64,000 nucleotides of DNA from an uncultured Spirochaetota bacterium. Its GTDB lineage: Bacteria; Spirochaetota; Spirochaetia; SZUA-6; Fen-1364. Position numbers: made by a program. The DNA lies in assembly GCA_963820525.1 (NCBI GenBank), contig CAWGAA010000001.1, positions 736,001 through 800,000 on the forward strand. Direction: 5' to 3'. Positions 1 to 64,000 of the stretch are shown here, piece after piece (position 1 is the stretch's first letter; every line of letters starts with the position of its first letter).

Positions 1-3000
1 TGTCCCGCGCATATTGTTCTGTTTCCGCGTAGATGTAACATGCGGTTGGAGCAGACCGCTTGAACTACGCATCGTTACTTATAGCTACGCGTGTTAAAAC
101 CAATTGTACCTGGATGATGCGGCGCGGCTGCTCAACCGCGTCGTTAGGCTTTTTCAAGGCTATTCTATCAAATTTAAGAAGGAGGTTTTTATGGCTACAT
201 GTAAGTATTGCGGAAAAAAGGCTGGTTTTCTGCGAAGTGCCCATAAACAGTGCAGGCAAGCTAACGAGCAAGGAATCATCCAAATTATTCAATTAATCAC
301 CGATAATTCGACAAAAGATTCCGCTTCTTCAATTAAAGATTCTATTCTAACACTTGCACAAGCATCACATATTGATAAAGCCGCTTTTACGGCTGCTTGC
401 ATTAAAGGATGGGAAAATGCTGTATCTAAGGCACTTGAAGATGATGTTCTCACAGCTGAAGAGGAGCAGTCACTCGTTCAAGTTAAGGATGCACTTGAAC
501 TCAGCCAGGAACAGCTGGATAAAAATGGCGCCTACTTGAAATTGGTTAAAGCAACAATCATTAGGGAATTGCTTGAAGGTAAGATACCGCAAGTTGCTAA
601 AATAGATGGTAACATTCCTTTTAATCTTCAAAAAAACGAGCAGATAGTATGGCTTTTCAATGATGCAAAATACTACGAGGAAAGGACGTACACCAGATAC
701 GGTGGCGCATATAGTGGTGTTAGCATCCGAGTTATGAAAGGCGTTTACTATAGGACAGGTGCTTTTAAAGGTAATCCTGTTGTCACTTCAAATATTGTTC
801 ATATTGATGATGGACAAGTTGCAATAACTGATAAGCATATTTATTTCGCTGGTTCAAAAAAGGCATTTCGTGTTCCATATAATAAGATAGTTGCTTTCAA
901 GCCGTATAATGATGGACTAGGAATCCAGAGAGATGCGCAGTCAGCAAAACCTCAAATCTTTGTTGTTGATGATGGATGGTTTATTCATAATCTAGTAGTG
1001 AACCTTTCAAAATTGGAAAAAGCCTAACATGCTGTTGGAGTTGACCCCTTAGCCTACGTTTGGAAAGTCATAGCTTACGTTGTTAAACCTCCACTACTCT
1101 GCTTCGGGCGGCGGGGCAACTCAACAGCGTCGTTATAGCGCTTCAAGAACTCTGCTTCATAATCATTTTGATAATGACTATAAATATTACTTCTCCTAAA
1201 AAGGAAACCTATGAATGCAATCAGCTTCAATGTGAATGACAAAGTACTTCGAGACGATTTCCTAAACAGCCATCTTCCAAATGCTATTCTCTCTCTCAAA
1301 GAAGATACTCAAGCTCTCTGGGGCAAGATGACACCACAACAAATGGTAGAGCATTTGATATGGTCTTTAAAATTATCAAATGGAATAACCTTTGTACAGT
1401 GTGTACTTCCTACTCATCTAGCAAATAGATCTAAATCATTCATAAACAATAACCAACATACTCCGCACGATTTCATGAACCCATATTTGAAAGAAGGCCT
1501 TCCACCGCTAGAACATACAAGCTTACACGAAGCACGTACTTCACTGCTAGAGCAGATTAGGATTTCTATTAGGCAATACTCTGAATCTCCAGATTCAATT
1601 CGTGTACATCCTCTTTTTGGGTAATTGAATCTCGAAGAATGGTCCCGGGTCCATTTCAAACATTCTTACCACCATCTATTACAATTTGGCCTAATCAAAG
1701 AGGAATAAATATTTTTCAAAGACTAACTTATCAATAATATTGTTCTTGCTTTCCTGAATTGCTTACTTTGCACATTTATAGCTTTAAAGAAAGCGCTATA
1801 ACATGCTGTTGGAGTTGACCGCCTGGGCTACTCTTCGTTAGCAATAATCACTTGCGTTGAACCTTTGCACCTGGATGATTCGGGCCGGCAACTCAACAGC
1901 GTCGTTATATCCATCTAGATTTATATTGATTAGCAAATAAGCAACGAATTATTAATTCAAGAATAGAAGATAAGAAGCTTTTCAATATCTTTATTTCCCA
2001 TGATGGCGTTGGCATTGTTCTGGAAGTATGGTGGTGTTGTACTAGTTTGCCAGCCTGTTTTTAGTTTCAAGGCATGGCACGTCACCTTGCCTTATTATCA
2101 CCGATTACACTCTACGGCTTAGATCAAGCTCTTTCAATTGATTCGATAGATCTTTTCTGCTTTCCTCAACGCCATCATACTTGATGGATATAACATGCTG
2201 TTGGAGTTGACCCCTTAACACACGTTTGGAAACGTGCAGCATATGTTGTTAAACCGCCGCTACCCTGCTTCGGGCGGCGGGGCAACTCAACAGCGTCGTT
2301 ATGCGTATTTTAAATATTCCATTATGCTAAGATGATACCTTAATTAAAGGGGTGATTTATGGAATACAGTTCTAAGAAAAAATGCTTTGTATTAATGCCA
2401 TTTGAGGTAAAATATGTCGAAATTTATTCAGAAGTATATAAGTCAGTTTGCGAAAGCAATGGTGTTTCCTGCTGGCGTGTTGACGAAATATCTCGTCCTG
2501 GTTCAATAACAAAAGATATTGTTGATGGAATTCTTGATGCAGATTTAATTATTGCAGATTTAACTAGCAGAAATCCTAATGTTTTTTATGAATTGGGTAT
2601 TGCTCATAGTACAGGAAATAAGACAATAATGACATCCCAGAATAAGGGAGATGTTCCTTTCGATATATCAAATTATAGAATTATTTTCTATGAACAGTCA
2701 ATTCTAGGAAGTAAAAAGTTATTTCGTGATCTCGATCATGCGATAAAAGAATTGCTTAAAAGTCTTTTAAATACAAACAACCCTGTTCAAGAAGTATTAT
2801 CTAACCGTTCAATAATTGGCCTGCGAAAGAGAATTCCAATAATGAGTGTTATTAGTCCCAAAAGGACATATAATCAGATTAGACAATTAATTATCAAAGA
2901 AAATATCCAATACGTTGATGAATTAAAGAGATTAAACCTAGAAGGAATTAAAAGAAAATATAAAATGGGACCAATAATAATGGGTACTCTTGTTCGGGTA

Positions 3001-63000: not shown

Positions 63001-64000
63001 TAGATTCCTGGCCTTTCGTGAAATCCCTCTTGCTAGAGTTCGCTTCGCGTTGCTGATTCGGGGCGGCAACTCAACAGCGTCGTTATCTCCATCTAAAATT
63101 TTGTTGATTAGCAATGAAGCAACAAATTAATAATTCAATAATATAGGATAAAACGTTTTTCAATTTCATGTTTGCCCATGATGGCGTTGGCATTGCTCTG
63201 GAAGGATGGCGGTGTTGTACTACATTGCCTGCTTGTCTTTAGTTTCAAGGCATGGCACGCCACCTTGGCTTATTATCACTGATTACATTCTACGGCTTAG
63301 ATCAAGCTCTTTCAAATGATTCGCTAGATCTTTTCTGCTTTCCTCAACGCCATCATACTGGATGGAGATAACATGTCGTTGCAGCTGACCGCCCAAGTTA
63401 CGCGTCGTCACTTGAAACTACGCGTTCTCAGGTATTTCATTTTCTTGAGGCGGGGCGGCAGCTGAACTCCTTGTTAGGCAGCCACAAGAGAGCTATTTCA
63501 TATATCCTTGAGTTTCTCTTCTCACGTTTCCGGGTAGAATATATGAATATTGCTCTTGAATCACTTGCAGAATTCCTTGTTAAGGCAAAACAAATAACCT
63601 ATGCCTCAGGCGGCTCGAATAGCTCTTACACTGTCCCTCCCCTTTTCAAAGATTCTCATCAACTCGAGTATACGATCGATGATCTTCATTATAGAGATGT
63701 CTATTTTGGACAATCACATTTTGCTGGACAAGAAGTAGTTTTTTTCAAAGATAAATGTATCTGGTCAATGTGCTATTCGGGCGGATGGACTGATCTGTTG
63801 ACCGGTAAGAATCAAATACTTTCTATTTCTTCCGTCCTTCAAGCTTCTCTTCGCCAAGTACCTTCTAAAATCCCATTCCGAGGTCCAAAGTTCTTGAACC
63901 TCACGCCTTACACATATAATAATCACGCCATTGGAGATATAAGATTATTCCAAGGAACAGAAGATATTCAGAGAGATAATATCATTTTGTATAAACTTTC

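Follow-up and report, generated by a model that had tools for sequence, protein, structure and literature searches.

Three amplified families of short non-coding cassettes in a 141-kb sedentary chromosomal integron of an uncultured spirochaete

The window, a stretch of 64,000 nt that was analysed at its full length, forms the central section of the array of cassettes in a sedentary chromosomal integron. The integron integrase ORF adjoins the array outside the window, in divergent orientation, and matches the TIGR02249 "integron integrase" model at 410 bits (cut-off 265); it also has Pfam Phage_integrase and SAM_4 domains. An attC profile built from 101 seed sites gave 184 matches genome-wide at E ≤ 1e-3, of which 174 fell within C1:683761-824376, every one of them on the + strand. 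At least two divergent attC sites escaped the profile, giving at least 176 same-strand attC sites, and as many cassettes, over 141 kb. This confirms the integrase and giant same-strand array noted in a preliminary description of the region. All parts of a complete sedentary chromosomal integron are present: the integrase, same-strand attC sites with R''...AAC and GTT...R' ends and an imperfect internal symmetry, many cassettes, and a chromosomal setting on a 3.2-Mb contig that carries dnaA. The attC hairpin was visible in folds of four cassettes. The genome, which has the spirochaete marker FlaA, has a G+C content of 60%, and the array 39–51% per 4 kb.

GTTR was found at the expected crossover in 170 of the 174 attC sites, which allowed 166 cassettes to be segmented cleanly. 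Their lengths were 388–398 bp (58 cassettes), 418–427 bp (30), 439 bp (three), 272 bp (one) and at least 715 bp (74). Single-linkage blastn clustering of the cassette bodies, without attC, gave clusters of 58, 30, 3, 3 and 3 members, followed by ten pairs. The short cassettes comprise family A (≈391 bp, n = 58), family B (≈423 bp, n = 30) and family C (439 bp, n = 3), together 91 of the 166, and each unit is a normal cassette, running from the G|TTA crossover to an attC of its own. About 15 further copies lay beyond the segmentation: eight of A (one at attI, two behind missed attC sites and five interrupted by insertion sequences (IS)), four of B and three of C. The totals are thus ≈66 A, ≈34 B and ≈6 C, or ≈106 copies, compared to the 60, 31 and 5 (96) first described, and the three amplified families stand. 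The accompanying statement that they make up more than half of the integron holds for the segmented cassettes by count (55%), but not by length (28%, or 36,770 of 130,344 bp). Between their arms, B and C are 65% identical (112 of 173 columns, versus 94 ± 3.3 in shuffled sequences), and the arms themselves are identical. B and C are distant homologues, and there are therefore two deep lineages among the three families.

Table 1. Features of the integron. Positions are those of the window except where contig C1 is named.
Feature	Position	Strand	Remarks
Integron integrase ORF	C1:682089-683324	−	
Whole cassette array, sedentary chromosomal integron	C1:683478-824380	+	
Middle part of cassette array	1..64000	+	75 attC profile matches start here, all + strand
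A cassette c81	1905..2298	+	arms 2000-2011 / 2167-2178, 155 nt between; attC from about 2190
B cassette c83	3198..3623	+	repeat-bounded core 3327-3490
B cassette c84	3624..4042	+	cassette table, B/C repeat pattern
B cassette c86	4833..5250	+	cassette table, B/C repeat pattern
B cassette c87	5251..5671	+	cassette table, B/C repeat pattern
B cassette c88	5672..6094	+	cassette table, B/C repeat pattern
B cassette c89	6095..6519	+	cassette table, B/C repeat pattern
A cassette c90	6520..6914	+	identical to c19, c35, c159, c168
A cassette c91	6915..7308	+	cassette table
A cassette c92, IS-interrupted (DDE_3/HTH and DDE_Tnp_1_4 transposase genes)	7309..10545	+	A residues 25-278 at 10180-10434
B cassette c93	10546..10967	+	cassette table, B/C repeat pattern
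B cassette c95	11866..12287	+	cassette table, B/C repeat pattern
A cassette c97	13171..13562	+	cassette table
A cassette c102, interrupted by same two IS kinds as c92	17382..20617	+	A residues 44-278 at 20270-20506
A cassette c103	20618..21009	+	cassette table
B cassette c105	21848..22274	+	cassette table, B/C repeat pattern
A cassette c107	23117..23509	+	cassette table
A cassette c110	27276..27666	+	cassette table
B cassette c111	27667..28088	+	cassette table, B/C repeat pattern
A cassette c112	28089..28480	+	cassette table
B cassette c114, truncated attC, unresolved by segmentation	29287..29683	+	family-copy search
A cassette c116	31455..31845	+	cassette table
A cassette c117	31846..32238	+	cassette table
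B cassette c118	32239..32663	+	cassette table, B/C repeat pattern
Two tandem C cassettes	32664..33542	+	cores 32810-32970, 33250-33410; attC between missed by profile
A cassette c120	33543..33934	+	cassette table
B cassette c121	33935..34359	+	cassette table, B/C repeat pattern
B cassette c122	34360..34778	+	cassette table, B/C repeat pattern
A cassette c123	34779..35169	+	cassette table
B cassette c124, interrupted by IS630-like element	35170..36709	+	IS genes 35413-36458
B cassette c125	36710..37134	+	cassette table, B/C repeat pattern
C cassette c126, IS30-family element (37467-38561) inserted just 5' of its attC	37135..38662	+	
A cassette c127	38663..39054	+	cassette table
C cassette c128	39055..39493	+	core 39201-39361
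A cassette c129	39494..39883	+	cassette table
A cassette c130	39884..40275	+	cassette table
B cassette c132	41239..41661	+	cassette table
A cassette c134	42639..43028	+	twin of c2, which is near attI
B cassette c136, divergent (80% identical to reference copy), unresolved by segmentation	43795..44221	+	B/C repeat pattern
B cassette c141	51604..52030	+	cassette table, B/C repeat pattern
A cassette c142, IS1595-type element inside	52031..53439	+	transposase gene 52075-53022, − strand
A cassette c143	53440..53831	+	cassette table
B cassette c148	59480..59901	+	cassette table, B/C repeat pattern
A cassette c150	60666..61060	+	cassette table
A cassette c152	63083..63473	+	cassette table

The cassettes had been described as non-coding, which was upheld by the lack of a codon pattern, an unstable frame length and the absence of protein homologues. 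With the limits used for gene-less cassettes, an ORF of ≤150 bp (Boucher 2006) or ≤70 aa (Blanco 2024), the families qualify, the A frame reaching 72 aa in two copies only. Substitutions were tested in A and B (42 and 23 distinct sequences), C being too uniform (3–6 copies at 99–100% identity), and the synonymous share of changes was near random expectation in every consensus ORF of at least 20 codons. For the longest + strand A frame, this share was 0.24 versus 0.22 expected, with 263, 242 and 265 changes at the three codon positions and 33 stop gains. We considered the possibility that the A cassettes encode a short, fast-evolving peptide (MMALALLWKDGG...), since an ATG-started frame of 45–49 aa is open in 33 of 54 copies. 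However, this frame has neither a synonymous excess nor a third-position bias, no ribosome-binding site was seen before it on reading the sequence, and its length varies: with the start at ATGATGG, 13 copies have a frame of 21 aa, 11 of 45 aa, 20 of 49 aa and two of 72 aa (21–49 aa in 52 of the 54). A search of 5.8 billion protein clusters gave no homologue from beyond this contig, and nothing comparable to this frame is present in the B and C consensus sequences. The ATG is conserved in A because it belongs to the left arm of an inverted repeat, the mirror image of which reads ATGATGGCGTTG on the opposite strand as well, and translation is not required to account for it. A peptide is thus very improbable.

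The inverted repeat is the common feature of the three families, with arms of 9–12 nt around 143–158 nt. In A, the arms ATGATGGCGTTG and CAACGCCATCAT are 154–158 nt apart in 59 copies and end 10 nt before the R'' box. The B arms are 10–11 nt long and those of C are GCGCGGGCC and GGCCCGCGC; in these two families the spacing is 143–146 nt in 34 copies, and the repeat ends 21–25 nt before attC. The B/C repeat pattern matched 21 times in the window, versus none in 100 shuffles, and three control stretches of ORF cassettes (11.9 kb) contained only two perfect inverted repeats of at least 10 nt with more than 100 nt between the arms. The "AT-rich" core of the preliminary description has a G+C content of 37–44% between the arms, like the whole array, and it is the 5' region of the family cassettes that is the most AT-rich part (27–31% G+C). 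The arms are the most conserved part of the cassette, with π of 0.012 and 0.004 in A and 0.016 and 0.008 in B, compared to 0.13–0.17 for the attC stems and 0.21–0.22 for the 5' regions. One arm mismatch was found in 6 of 58 A and 11 of 30 B copies, none of them compensated, and no G-U variants were seen in the arms of these copies.

There are also third elements that offer alternative pairings. In B and C, AGCTCGCGC, located 21 nt downstream and present in all 34 copies, can pair with the left arm in a helix of eight pairs, one of them a G-U on the + strand only. In A, it is the right arm that has a second possible partner, GGATGGCGGTGTTG, found in consensus form in 45 of 56 copies. These elements rank among the most conserved stretches; their recognition as third copies of the arm is post hoc, having been made after viewing the sequences. 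Together with the arms, which close the element with folding z-scores of −3.0 to −4.7 in A and B, such alternative helices would suit a gene for a stable small RNA of ≈165–180 nt with its ends paired by the repeat, acting either in trans or as a cis switch through the third arm copy. Several observations speak against such an RNA. The excess folding is due to the inverted repeat only, as z fell to −0.1 to −0.6 without the arms; RNAalifold, applied to 39 distinct A sequences and to 14 B plus 3 C sequences, found the terminal helix only, with a covariation term of −0.44 kcal/mol and changes on both sides in one of 17 predicted pairs; and the arm mismatches are neither compensated nor of the G-U type. 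The earlier finding that no fold beyond the long-range repeat is supported by covariation was thereby reproduced, as was the lack of an Rfam match (none at the gathering score). With an invariant terminal helix only, no Rfam match and no recognisable promoter or terminator, the families do not resemble a structured non-coding RNA family, and we regard a small RNA as improbable. A retron-like RNA, with terminal repeats around ≈160 nt, was rejected, as there was no stable internal hairpin and no reverse transcriptase among the scanned ORFs of the window. A degenerate second attC in the core was likewise rejected: nhmmer (--max, E ≤ 1000) gave no match in the A, B or C bodies.

Miniature inverted-repeat transposable elements (MITEs) occupy many unrelated sites, and their copies have target-site duplications on both sides. 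The present cassettes resemble them in having many copies with terminal inverted repeats of 9–12 nt around ≈150 nt of non-coding DNA, but all copies share one position in the cassette frame and none is found outside the array. There is no target-site duplication next to the arms, and the moving unit is the cassette, rather than the repeat-bounded piece. The reading of the core as a MITE or as IS ends was rejected: the ends do not match those of any IS in the genome, and the repeat 12-mer occurs five times outside the array, always in high-G+C coding sequence and with no partner within 3 kb.

The relationships between copies point to multiplication as single cassettes. By sensitive blastn, 34 of 58 A and 24 of 30 B copies have twins at ≥98% identity, and 26 A and 13 B copies have twins that are 100% identical; in each of the two families only two copies have a homologous neighbour in register. 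Cassettes c25–c35 recur as c159–c168 at 99.7–100% identity, with the order reversed and the orientation kept, and the array has three anti-collinear neighbour links versus 0.48 expected (P about 0.012, 3000 permutations) and one collinear link. Such a block is the product expected of serial insertion at one fixed site, and would not be yielded by inversion or segmental duplication. The slot adjoining attI is taken by a cassette 99.7% identical to the commonest A variant, which was found five more times, and A occupies six of cassettes 1–8. The A, B and C units have evidently multiplied as single cassettes inside this one array, and the pattern of copies fits integrase-driven copy-and-reinsert, as the preliminary description had proposed. 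Tandem A–A neighbours numbered 24, versus 19.6 by chance (P 0.10), and neither A nor B is over-clustered in tandem. All four gametes were found in 54% of informative A site pairs, and attC types are common to A, B and ORF cassettes; recombination has since moved segments and attC types between the copies. ORF cassettes were also duplicated two or three times, and scale alone sets A, B and C apart. With ≈100 diverged copies, the array constitutes an unusually clean record of cassette movement, including single-cassette twins, a block re-laid in reverse and a newest slot that holds the commonest variant.

The genome was assembled from a metagenome into four contigs, and we considered whether this repeat-rich region had been wrongly expanded or shuffled during assembly. 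The identical twins of 26 A and 13 B copies could arise in this way, and no single contig of the DNA runs examined spans the stretch. However, 42 of 58 A and 23 of 30 B copies are distinct in sequence and are interleaved with unique ORF cassettes. Furthermore, the A repeat pattern was found at two loci in JGI metagenomes, one a chance match and the other a real one on an independent contig (L011), where an ORF cassette is followed by A (99.3%) and then by the start of C, that is, in the order attC-A-attC-C. Pieces of A, B and C, 85–100% identical, are also present in contigs from three further studies. In the contigs from other metagenomes, L011 among them, the neighbours differ, with some loose ends, in line with copying as single cassettes. 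Thus, there is only a slight chance that the array is an artefact, although copy numbers could be off by some units.

No family copy was found outside the array in this genome. Searches with the A body in 40 relatives, and with the A and B bodies in plasmids, gave no match, and a 3-kb stretch (A, C, A, A, ORF cassette, B) matched only by its attC ends, in two of 60 relatives. Among 185,579 species genomes, the A repeat pattern had one locus, a chance match in a gene of 63% G+C without attC. Four of 15 stretches beside intI of ten relatives had 6, 4, 12 and 2 attC sites, with spacings of at least 578 bp; no run of ≈400-bp units was seen in these stretches, which are mostly from draft assemblies, in which such repeats would collapse, and were searched with a profile tuned to the present genome, so that the comparison carries little weight.

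A regulatory role would have the host keep the cassettes as promoters, each copy starting transcription into silent downstream cassettes beyond the reach of the single attI promoter. Gene-less cassettes with this property are known: in the account of Blanco et al. (2024; NAR 52:2961, PMC11014356), of 29 gene-less cassettes taken from four Vibrio superintegrons, the majority had sense-strand promoter activity, and its introduction mentions two gene-less Treponema cassettes that hold promoters. The present cassettes, like those, are short, gene-less and placed among the silent cassettes of a sedentary integron; their 5' regions are the most AT-rich and the copies are spread along the whole array. 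Activity was measured in the Vibrio cassettes, whereas the comparison here is by sequence, in which no conserved promoter motif was found; amplified families, present here, are not described in the available text of that paper. A consensus scan, weak evidence either way, found no sigma-70-type hexamer pair conserved in the sense strand of A, B or C, and a scan of positions 1905-7308 gave 10 promoter-like sites versus 16.8 in shuffles. The single good consensus match, TTGAAA-17-TAGAAT, is antisense in A and was rejected, as its hexamers vary more than the spacer, with TTGAAT in the −10 position of 22 of the 58 copies. A sigma-54 promoter at TGGCACG in the A core was also rejected, the −12 spacing being off and about 20 of 58 copies, estimated by eye, reading CTGC there. 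Moreover, the strongest constraint is on the repeat arms rather than on any promoter-like region, and tandem runs are not avoided, with six A in a row near attI and four B in a row in the window. Promoters kept by the host are therefore a somewhat unlikely main reason for the families, although of the alternatives considered they have the most in their favour; if the cassettes are promoters, this would explain expression of the 141-kb array.

The phenomenon in general was already published in 2006, and the novelty claimed for it in the preliminary description was overstated. According to Boucher et al. (2006; BMC Evol Biol 6:3, PMC1382264), 107 of 219 cassettes (49%) of Vibrio vulnificus CMCP6 are non-coding, and one non-coding family has 45 copies in that strain and 34 in strain YJ016; the same two hypotheses, selfish elements or promoters/RNAs, were offered, and gene conversion was suggested. 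As here, that account has large chromosomal arrays with about half non-coding cassettes and a multi-copy non-coding family, the copies of which are 80–90% alike, confined to close relatives and without a codon-like substitution pattern. The present array differs in belonging to another phylum and in its unrelated sequences, and has a slightly higher share and copy number (≈66 A). The invariant long-range inverted repeat, single-cassette twins and reversed block are documented here, the Vibrio families being compared by description only.

Large chromosomal integrons are commonly seen as stores of adaptive genes. The present array shows that, outside Vibrio too, the majority of cassette slots can go to non-coding units seemingly selected for their own copying. 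From the pattern of copies, we consider the chances about even that A, B and C persist mainly as self-propagating ("selfish") cassettes that are good at being copied, and our best guess on function is that they act in cis for their own propagation and may carry promoters besides. The integrase would excise a cassette from the bottom strand only, so that one chromosome keeps the cassette after replication, and return of the excised circle at attI would give a net gain of one copy. The unchangeable part of the cassette, consisting of the inverted repeat, the third copy with its alternative pairing and the 10–25 nt leading to attC, may be read as a cis-acting nucleic-acid element that the cassette needs to found new copies, whether by folding of single-stranded DNA near attC, by binding a protein or as part of a read-through transcript. 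Promoters firing into neighbours, as those of gene-less Vibrio cassettes do, may coexist with self-propagation. The lineage restriction, with no copies outside the array or in the searched relatives, would be as in selfish families. A host-level function or homogenisation by gene conversion could account just as well for the high conservation of the arms, and the tolerance of A and B copies for IS insertions fits junk as well as anything else. The extended R''/R' pairing has a median of 12 nt in A, 8 nt in B and 8 nt in C, versus 12 nt in other cassettes, and none of the attC features measured accounts for a higher mobility of A, B and C.

A more specific version of self-propagation, which we consider unlikely, is that the inverted repeat and its competing third copy form a cis-acting "excision booster" that folds the single-stranded cassette next to attC or recruits a factor. 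A, B and C would then out-replicate all other cassettes, and the integron would be the habitat of non-coding "hyper-parasites" of the integrase that evolve in waves, B earlier and A ongoing. Should the repeat indeed promote excision or insertion, no earlier example of such a cis element outside attC would be known, and the finding would bear on the tuning of cassette mobility.

Cassette length and strand affect excision in the system described by Loot et al. (2017; PMC5371416). In keeping with self-propagation of the present families, short cassettes would excise better when the bottom strand is the lagging-strand template, as is apparently the case here. In the survey part of that paper, the bottom strand was on the lagging-strand template only in arrays of ≤22 cassettes. 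In the present genome, dnaA coincides with the minimum of the cumulative GC skew (2.617 Mb), and between 0.3 and 2.5 Mb the + strand has a negative skew, which places the attC bottom strand on the lagging-strand template, with the provisos that the skew is weak (1–3%) and the assembly is in four contigs. With its recombining strand in this position, the array may be exceptionally permissive for an excision booster.

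An ORF of 411 aa on the − strand of contig CAWGAA010000001.1 (C1) scored 410 bits against the NCBIfam model TIGR02249 "integron integrase" (cut-off 265) and contained Pfam Phage_integrase and SAM-like domains, confirming the integrase gene at the contig position named in a preliminary description. The stretch that follows it terminates in ...AAATG|TTATATCC..., and cassette 1 directly adjoins. An attC profile, trained on 101 seed sites that had been located with a short 3'-end motif, returned 184 sites genome-wide at E ≤ 1e-3. In the array there were 174 sites on the + strand and none on the − strand, with 75 starting within the window. 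The sites are about 113 nt long and are organized as ...ATAAC-ATGCTGTTGGAGTTG...CAACTCAACAGCGTC-GTTAT... (R''/L''...L'/R'), with the crossover at G|TTA. GTTR was present at the expected crossover in 170 of the 174 sites, yielding 166 cleanly bounded cassettes. Since at least two divergent attC sites were overlooked by the profile, the array comprises at least 176 cassettes. The genome (5.05 Mb in four contigs) has 60 % G+C and the array 39–51 %. FlaA, the spirochaete flagellar sheath family, was found in the genome (241 bits) and in none of 14 control genomes, in agreement with the phylum previously assumed. The genome also has a second gene for an integron integrase (448.6 bits), which has five attC sites downstream of it, and small attC clusters on contigs C2 and C3 with no intI match close by; none of these contained the gene-less families A, B or C.

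The 166 bounded cassettes fell into length classes of 388–398 bp (58), 418–427 bp (30), 439 bp (3), 272 bp (1) and at least 715 bp (74). Single-linkage blastn clustering of the bodies (cassettes minus attC) gave groups of 58 (A), 30 (B) and 3 (C), followed by two groups of three and ten pairs. When the bodies were searched against the whole genome, additional copies emerged for A (one at attI, two behind missed attC sites, five interrupted by insertion sequences), for B (two in unsegmentable stretches, two IS-interrupted) and for C (one tandem pair and one with an IS inside), and no copies were found outside the array. The totals of about 66 A, 34 B and 6 C slightly exceed the 60, 31 and 5 counted earlier. 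The claim that these families constitute more than half of the array holds by count (91/166 segmented cassettes, 55 %) but not by length (36,770 of 130,344 bp, 28 %).

Each family cassette contains an inverted repeat. An A cassette starts with TTAYATCCATC, followed by ≈95 nt at 27 % G+C, the left arm ATGATGGCGTTG, 154–158 nt (measured in 59 copies), the right arm CAACGCCATCAT, 10 nt and the attC. In B, ≈130 nt at 30 % G+C precede the arm TGCGCGGGCCA, 143–146 nt, the arm TGGCCCGCGCA, ≈21 nt and the attC; C has the same layout, but its arms measure 9 nt. In blastn, B and C align in three collinear blocks. Between the arms they are 65 % identical (112/173 aligned columns; 94 ± 3.3 when shuffled), and the spacer from arm to attC has 22/30 identities (shuffled, 16.2 ± 1.5); similarity of the 5' parts is slight (92/153; shuffled, 83.8 ± 3.2). 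This pattern indicates two deep lineages, A and B/C, with a common layout and unrelated sequence. The B/C arm pattern matched 21 times in the window and never in 100 shuffles; three control stretches of gene-bearing (ORF) cassettes, 11.9 kb in all, had two perfect repeats of at least 10 nt with more than 100 nt between the arms. The DNA that the repeat brackets, described earlier as AT-rich, is not unusually so for this array (37–44 % G+C).

Nucleotide diversity (π) in A was 0.012 and 0.004 in the two arms, 0.053 in the spacer to attC, 0.146 between the arms, 0.158 and 0.170 in the attC stems, 0.207 in the 5' region and 0.318 in the middle of attC. The corresponding values for B were 0.016 and 0.008 (arms), 0.067 (spacer), 0.126 and 0.164 (attC stems) and 0.222 (5' region). 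Thus, even the recombination site varies more than the arms, which are identical between B and C. A single arm mismatch occurred in 6/58 A and 11/30 B copies (eight of the latter at the outermost position), and none was compensated. Such invariance points either to a constraint on sequence in addition to pairing or to strong counter-selection of even one break. Other stretches almost without variation were GTGTTGTACTA and TTTCAAT (family A) and TTGGAACAGCT, GAATTCTAT and TCAATCAA (family B). Both lineages were also noticed, post hoc, to have the arm in a third copy. In B/C, AGCTCGCGC lies 21 nt past the left arm in 34/34 copies and can pair with that arm (eight pairs, including a G-T on the + strand); in A, GGATGGCGGTGTTG lies ≈15 nt past the left arm, has the consensus form in 45/56 copies and can pair with the right arm. 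An alternative helix is therefore possible in both.

Apart from the arms, there was little sign of structure. RNAalifold on 39 distinct A bodies, on both strands, gave the arm helix and little more; on 14 B and 3 C cores (the repeat-bounded stretch, arms included) it gave the 9-bp arm helix, invariant in 17/17, and a few trivial pairs, with a covariation term of −0.44 kcal/mol. Folding z-scores (12 distinct copies each of A and B and three of C, with 40 dinucleotide shuffles per copy) ranged from −3.0 to −4.7 for cores with arms, compared to −0.5/−0.1 (A), −0.6/−0.3 (B) and −2.0/−1.2 (C) on the +/− strands without them. The arms are thus the sole robust structural feature, bearing out the earlier view that no fold is supported beyond the long-range repeat. 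The window had no Rfam match at the gathering score, and at E ≤ 10 positions 1800–7400 gave only four hits, all at chance level. The cassettes do not form a recognizable structured RNA.

The cassettes are also non-coding. Changes were counted in all six frames for every consensus ORF of at least 20 codons (42 different sequences of A and 23 of B), and the synonymous share was close to that expected for random change. The longest + strand frame of A had a share of 0.24 (expected, 0.22), with 263/242/265 changes at the three codon positions and 33 stop gains; the longest B frame had 0.11 (expected, 0.19). One antisense A frame reached 0.38 (expected, 0.22), but it extends into attC, lacks a start codon and was set aside. 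The A frame that begins at the left-arm ATG varied in length among 54 copies (21 aa, 13 copies; 45 aa, 11 copies; 49 aa, 20 copies; 72 aa, 2 copies), and a 49-aa version had no homologue beyond this contig among 5.8 billion protein clusters. The apparent start codon simply belongs to the arm, and the mirror image yields the same ATGATGGCGTTG on the opposite strand. The reported lack of a conserved reading frame was thus corroborated.

Many copies had a twin, a near-identical copy elsewhere in the array: 34/58 A and 24/30 B copies at ≥98 % identity, including 26 A and 13 B at 100 %. Only two copies in each of these families had a homologous neighbor in register, and tandem clustering of A or of B did not exceed chance. 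What is duplicated is one cassette at a time, with ends precisely at the attC crossovers. Cassettes 25–35, numbered from the attI side, recur as 159–168 with 99.7–100 % identity, in reversed order (35-34-33, 28-26-25 and 31-30). An inversion would have flipped the strand, but the orientation is unchanged; a segmental duplication would have kept the order. Reversed order with unchanged orientation is instead what would be expected if cassettes insert one after another at one fixed site, where newcomers displace earlier ones. Over the whole array there were three anti-collinear neighbor links (0.48 expected, P ≈ 0.012) and one collinear link (0.48 expected, P = 0.38). At attI sits a cassette that shares 99.7 % identity with an A variant found five more times, six of cassettes 1–8 are A, and the closest twins of several lie far down the array. 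Counted by quarters of the array, A drops from 21 copies (first) to 10 (last); B has 13 and 10 copies in the middle two and 5 and 2 in the outer two. Provided that insertion occurs at attI, this distribution fits an older wave of B and a current wave of A. The cassettes have multiplied one at a time inside the array, as the copy-and-reinsert amplification of the preliminary description predicts, and the parts that stayed unchanged are the arms and the arm-to-attC spacer.

The copies also recombined after multiplication, as shown by all four gametes in 54 % of informative site pairs among A copies and by shared attC types: at least four types, ≥10 % apart, occur in A, and one type recurs in 16 cassettes of A, in 6 of B and in 21 others. 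Unrelated cassette bodies across the array were seen to have attC types in common. The canonical R''/R' stem is 7 nt; here, the stem of the circularized cassette was perfect over a median of 12 nt, in A and ORF cassettes alike.

The dnaA gene coincides with the minimum of the cumulative GC skew, and the skew of the + strand changes sign at 0.3 Mb, being positive before that point (from 0 Mb) and negative after it, up to 2.5 Mb. The leading strand is usually G-rich. On that assumption, forks would traverse the array leftward, and the − strand, which is the bottom strand of attC, would be the lagging-strand template, although the skew is weak (1–3 %) and the assembly is in four contigs. Loot et al. 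2017 (PMC5371416) reported higher excision in this orientation, in which their arrays had at most 22 cassettes; by that comparison, an array of 174 would be an outlier. They also described how, for long attC sites of low folding probability, excision drops as the cassette lengthens, for one pair of sites from 1.17e-3 at 60 bp to 5.25e-5 at +3000 bp. Short cassettes would gain an excision advantage in the predicted orientation.

Integron integrases above the cut-off were found in 32/61 genomes of the order, including this one. The A body was not found in 40 relatives, and a 3-kb stretch (A, C, A, A, ORF cassette, B) matched 2/60 relatives, by its attC ends only. No run of ≈400-bp units was seen in those of the relatives' assembled arrays that could be inspected, but draft assemblies would collapse such repeats. 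The exact A arm pattern occurred once in 185,579 species genomes, as a chance match in a gene. JGI metagenomes gave one real occurrence, a 1-kb contig (L011) with an ORF cassette, attC, an A copy 99.3 % identical to cassette 2, attC and the initial 41 nt of C, an order of neighbors not found at cassettes 2 or 134 of this genome. Contigs from wetland, sediment and soil runs of other studies had pieces of A, B and C at 85–100 % identity, and their loose ends led into other family members. The families thus live in a natural population in which their order is shuffled. By their sequence distribution they seem limited to a narrow lineage, as are the Vibrio non-coding cassettes discussed by Boucher et al. 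2006 (PMC1382264).

We infer that A, B and C are best seen as self-propagating cassettes with a conserved element that acts in cis. Only copies retaining this element would found new ones; it lies beside attC, in a layout common to two unrelated lineages, and the families, which are restricted in lineage, tolerate insertion of IS elements. The element might act through single-strand folding, as a binding site or as part of a transcript. Alternatively, the host may retain the cassettes as promoters, an activity that Blanco et al. 2024 (PMC11014356) found to be common, and not predictable from sequence, in gene-less Vibrio cassettes. Self-propagation of gene-less cassettes has itself been proposed: Boucher et al. 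2006 (PMC1382264) considered selfish elements or promoters/RNAs, plus gene conversion, for V. vulnificus, where non-coding cassettes made up 107/219 in CMCP6 and 57/187 in YJ016, one family had 45 and 34 copies, respectively, and the variation had no codon-like pattern. The general phenomenon, put forward earlier as new, was thus published already in 2006, and spirochaete chromosomal integrons are a recognized source of attC sites (Ghaly et al. 2021, PMC8352920). Some of the detail is new, namely the arm invariance, single-cassette twins, reversed-order block and replication orientation; word searches of open-access main text found no publication that describes this array or reports an invariant long-range repeat within gene-less cassettes.

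Coordinates of features in and around the array
Feature	Position	Strand or orientation	Remarks
Integron integrase ORF	C1:682089-683324	−	
Array of attC sites	C1:683761-824376	+	
Reversed-order block	C1:699229-706948 vs C1:810102-817871	same orientation	outside window; eight cassettes, including four ORF cassettes
Third arm copy, A (example)	window 2026-2039		
Third arm copy, B/C (example)	window 3356-3364		
IS30-family copies in window	26078-27172, 37467-38561, 44999-46093, 54631-55725, 58285-59369, 61886-62981	all same orientation	
IS30-family copies outside window	C1:808905, 818157, 821459	same as window copies	
Other IS in array, window	7367-9815, 18054-20241, 23874-24919, 29859-31322, 35413-36458, 49788-51194, 52075-53022		
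PIN-domain gene	window 22590-22967		
MazE-type antitoxin gene	window 23533-23823		
Second integron	C1:1954228-1963777	− (integrase)	
Small attC clusters	C2:539456-541699; C3:828845		
dnaA	C1:2,616,550		

The array also contained nine copies (99.5–100 % identity) of a 1,095-bp IS30-family element that encodes a 338-aa transposase with HTH_38 and rve domains. All nine were within the array, behind nine different cassettes, with the insertion point in every case a few nt upstream of TAAC in an attC R'' box and an apparent duplication of ≈4 bp. The element has the appearance of an IS that targets attC; we know of no report of such targeting by the IS30 family. The other insertion sequences in the window were IS630-like (DDE_3 plus HTH, four copies), DDE_Tnp_1_4 (three copies) and of the IS110 and IS1595 families, and several of them had inserted within A or B cassettes. 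Toxin–antitoxin cassettes stabilize large arrays, and a PIN-domain gene and a MazE-type antitoxin gene were found in neighboring cassettes of the window.
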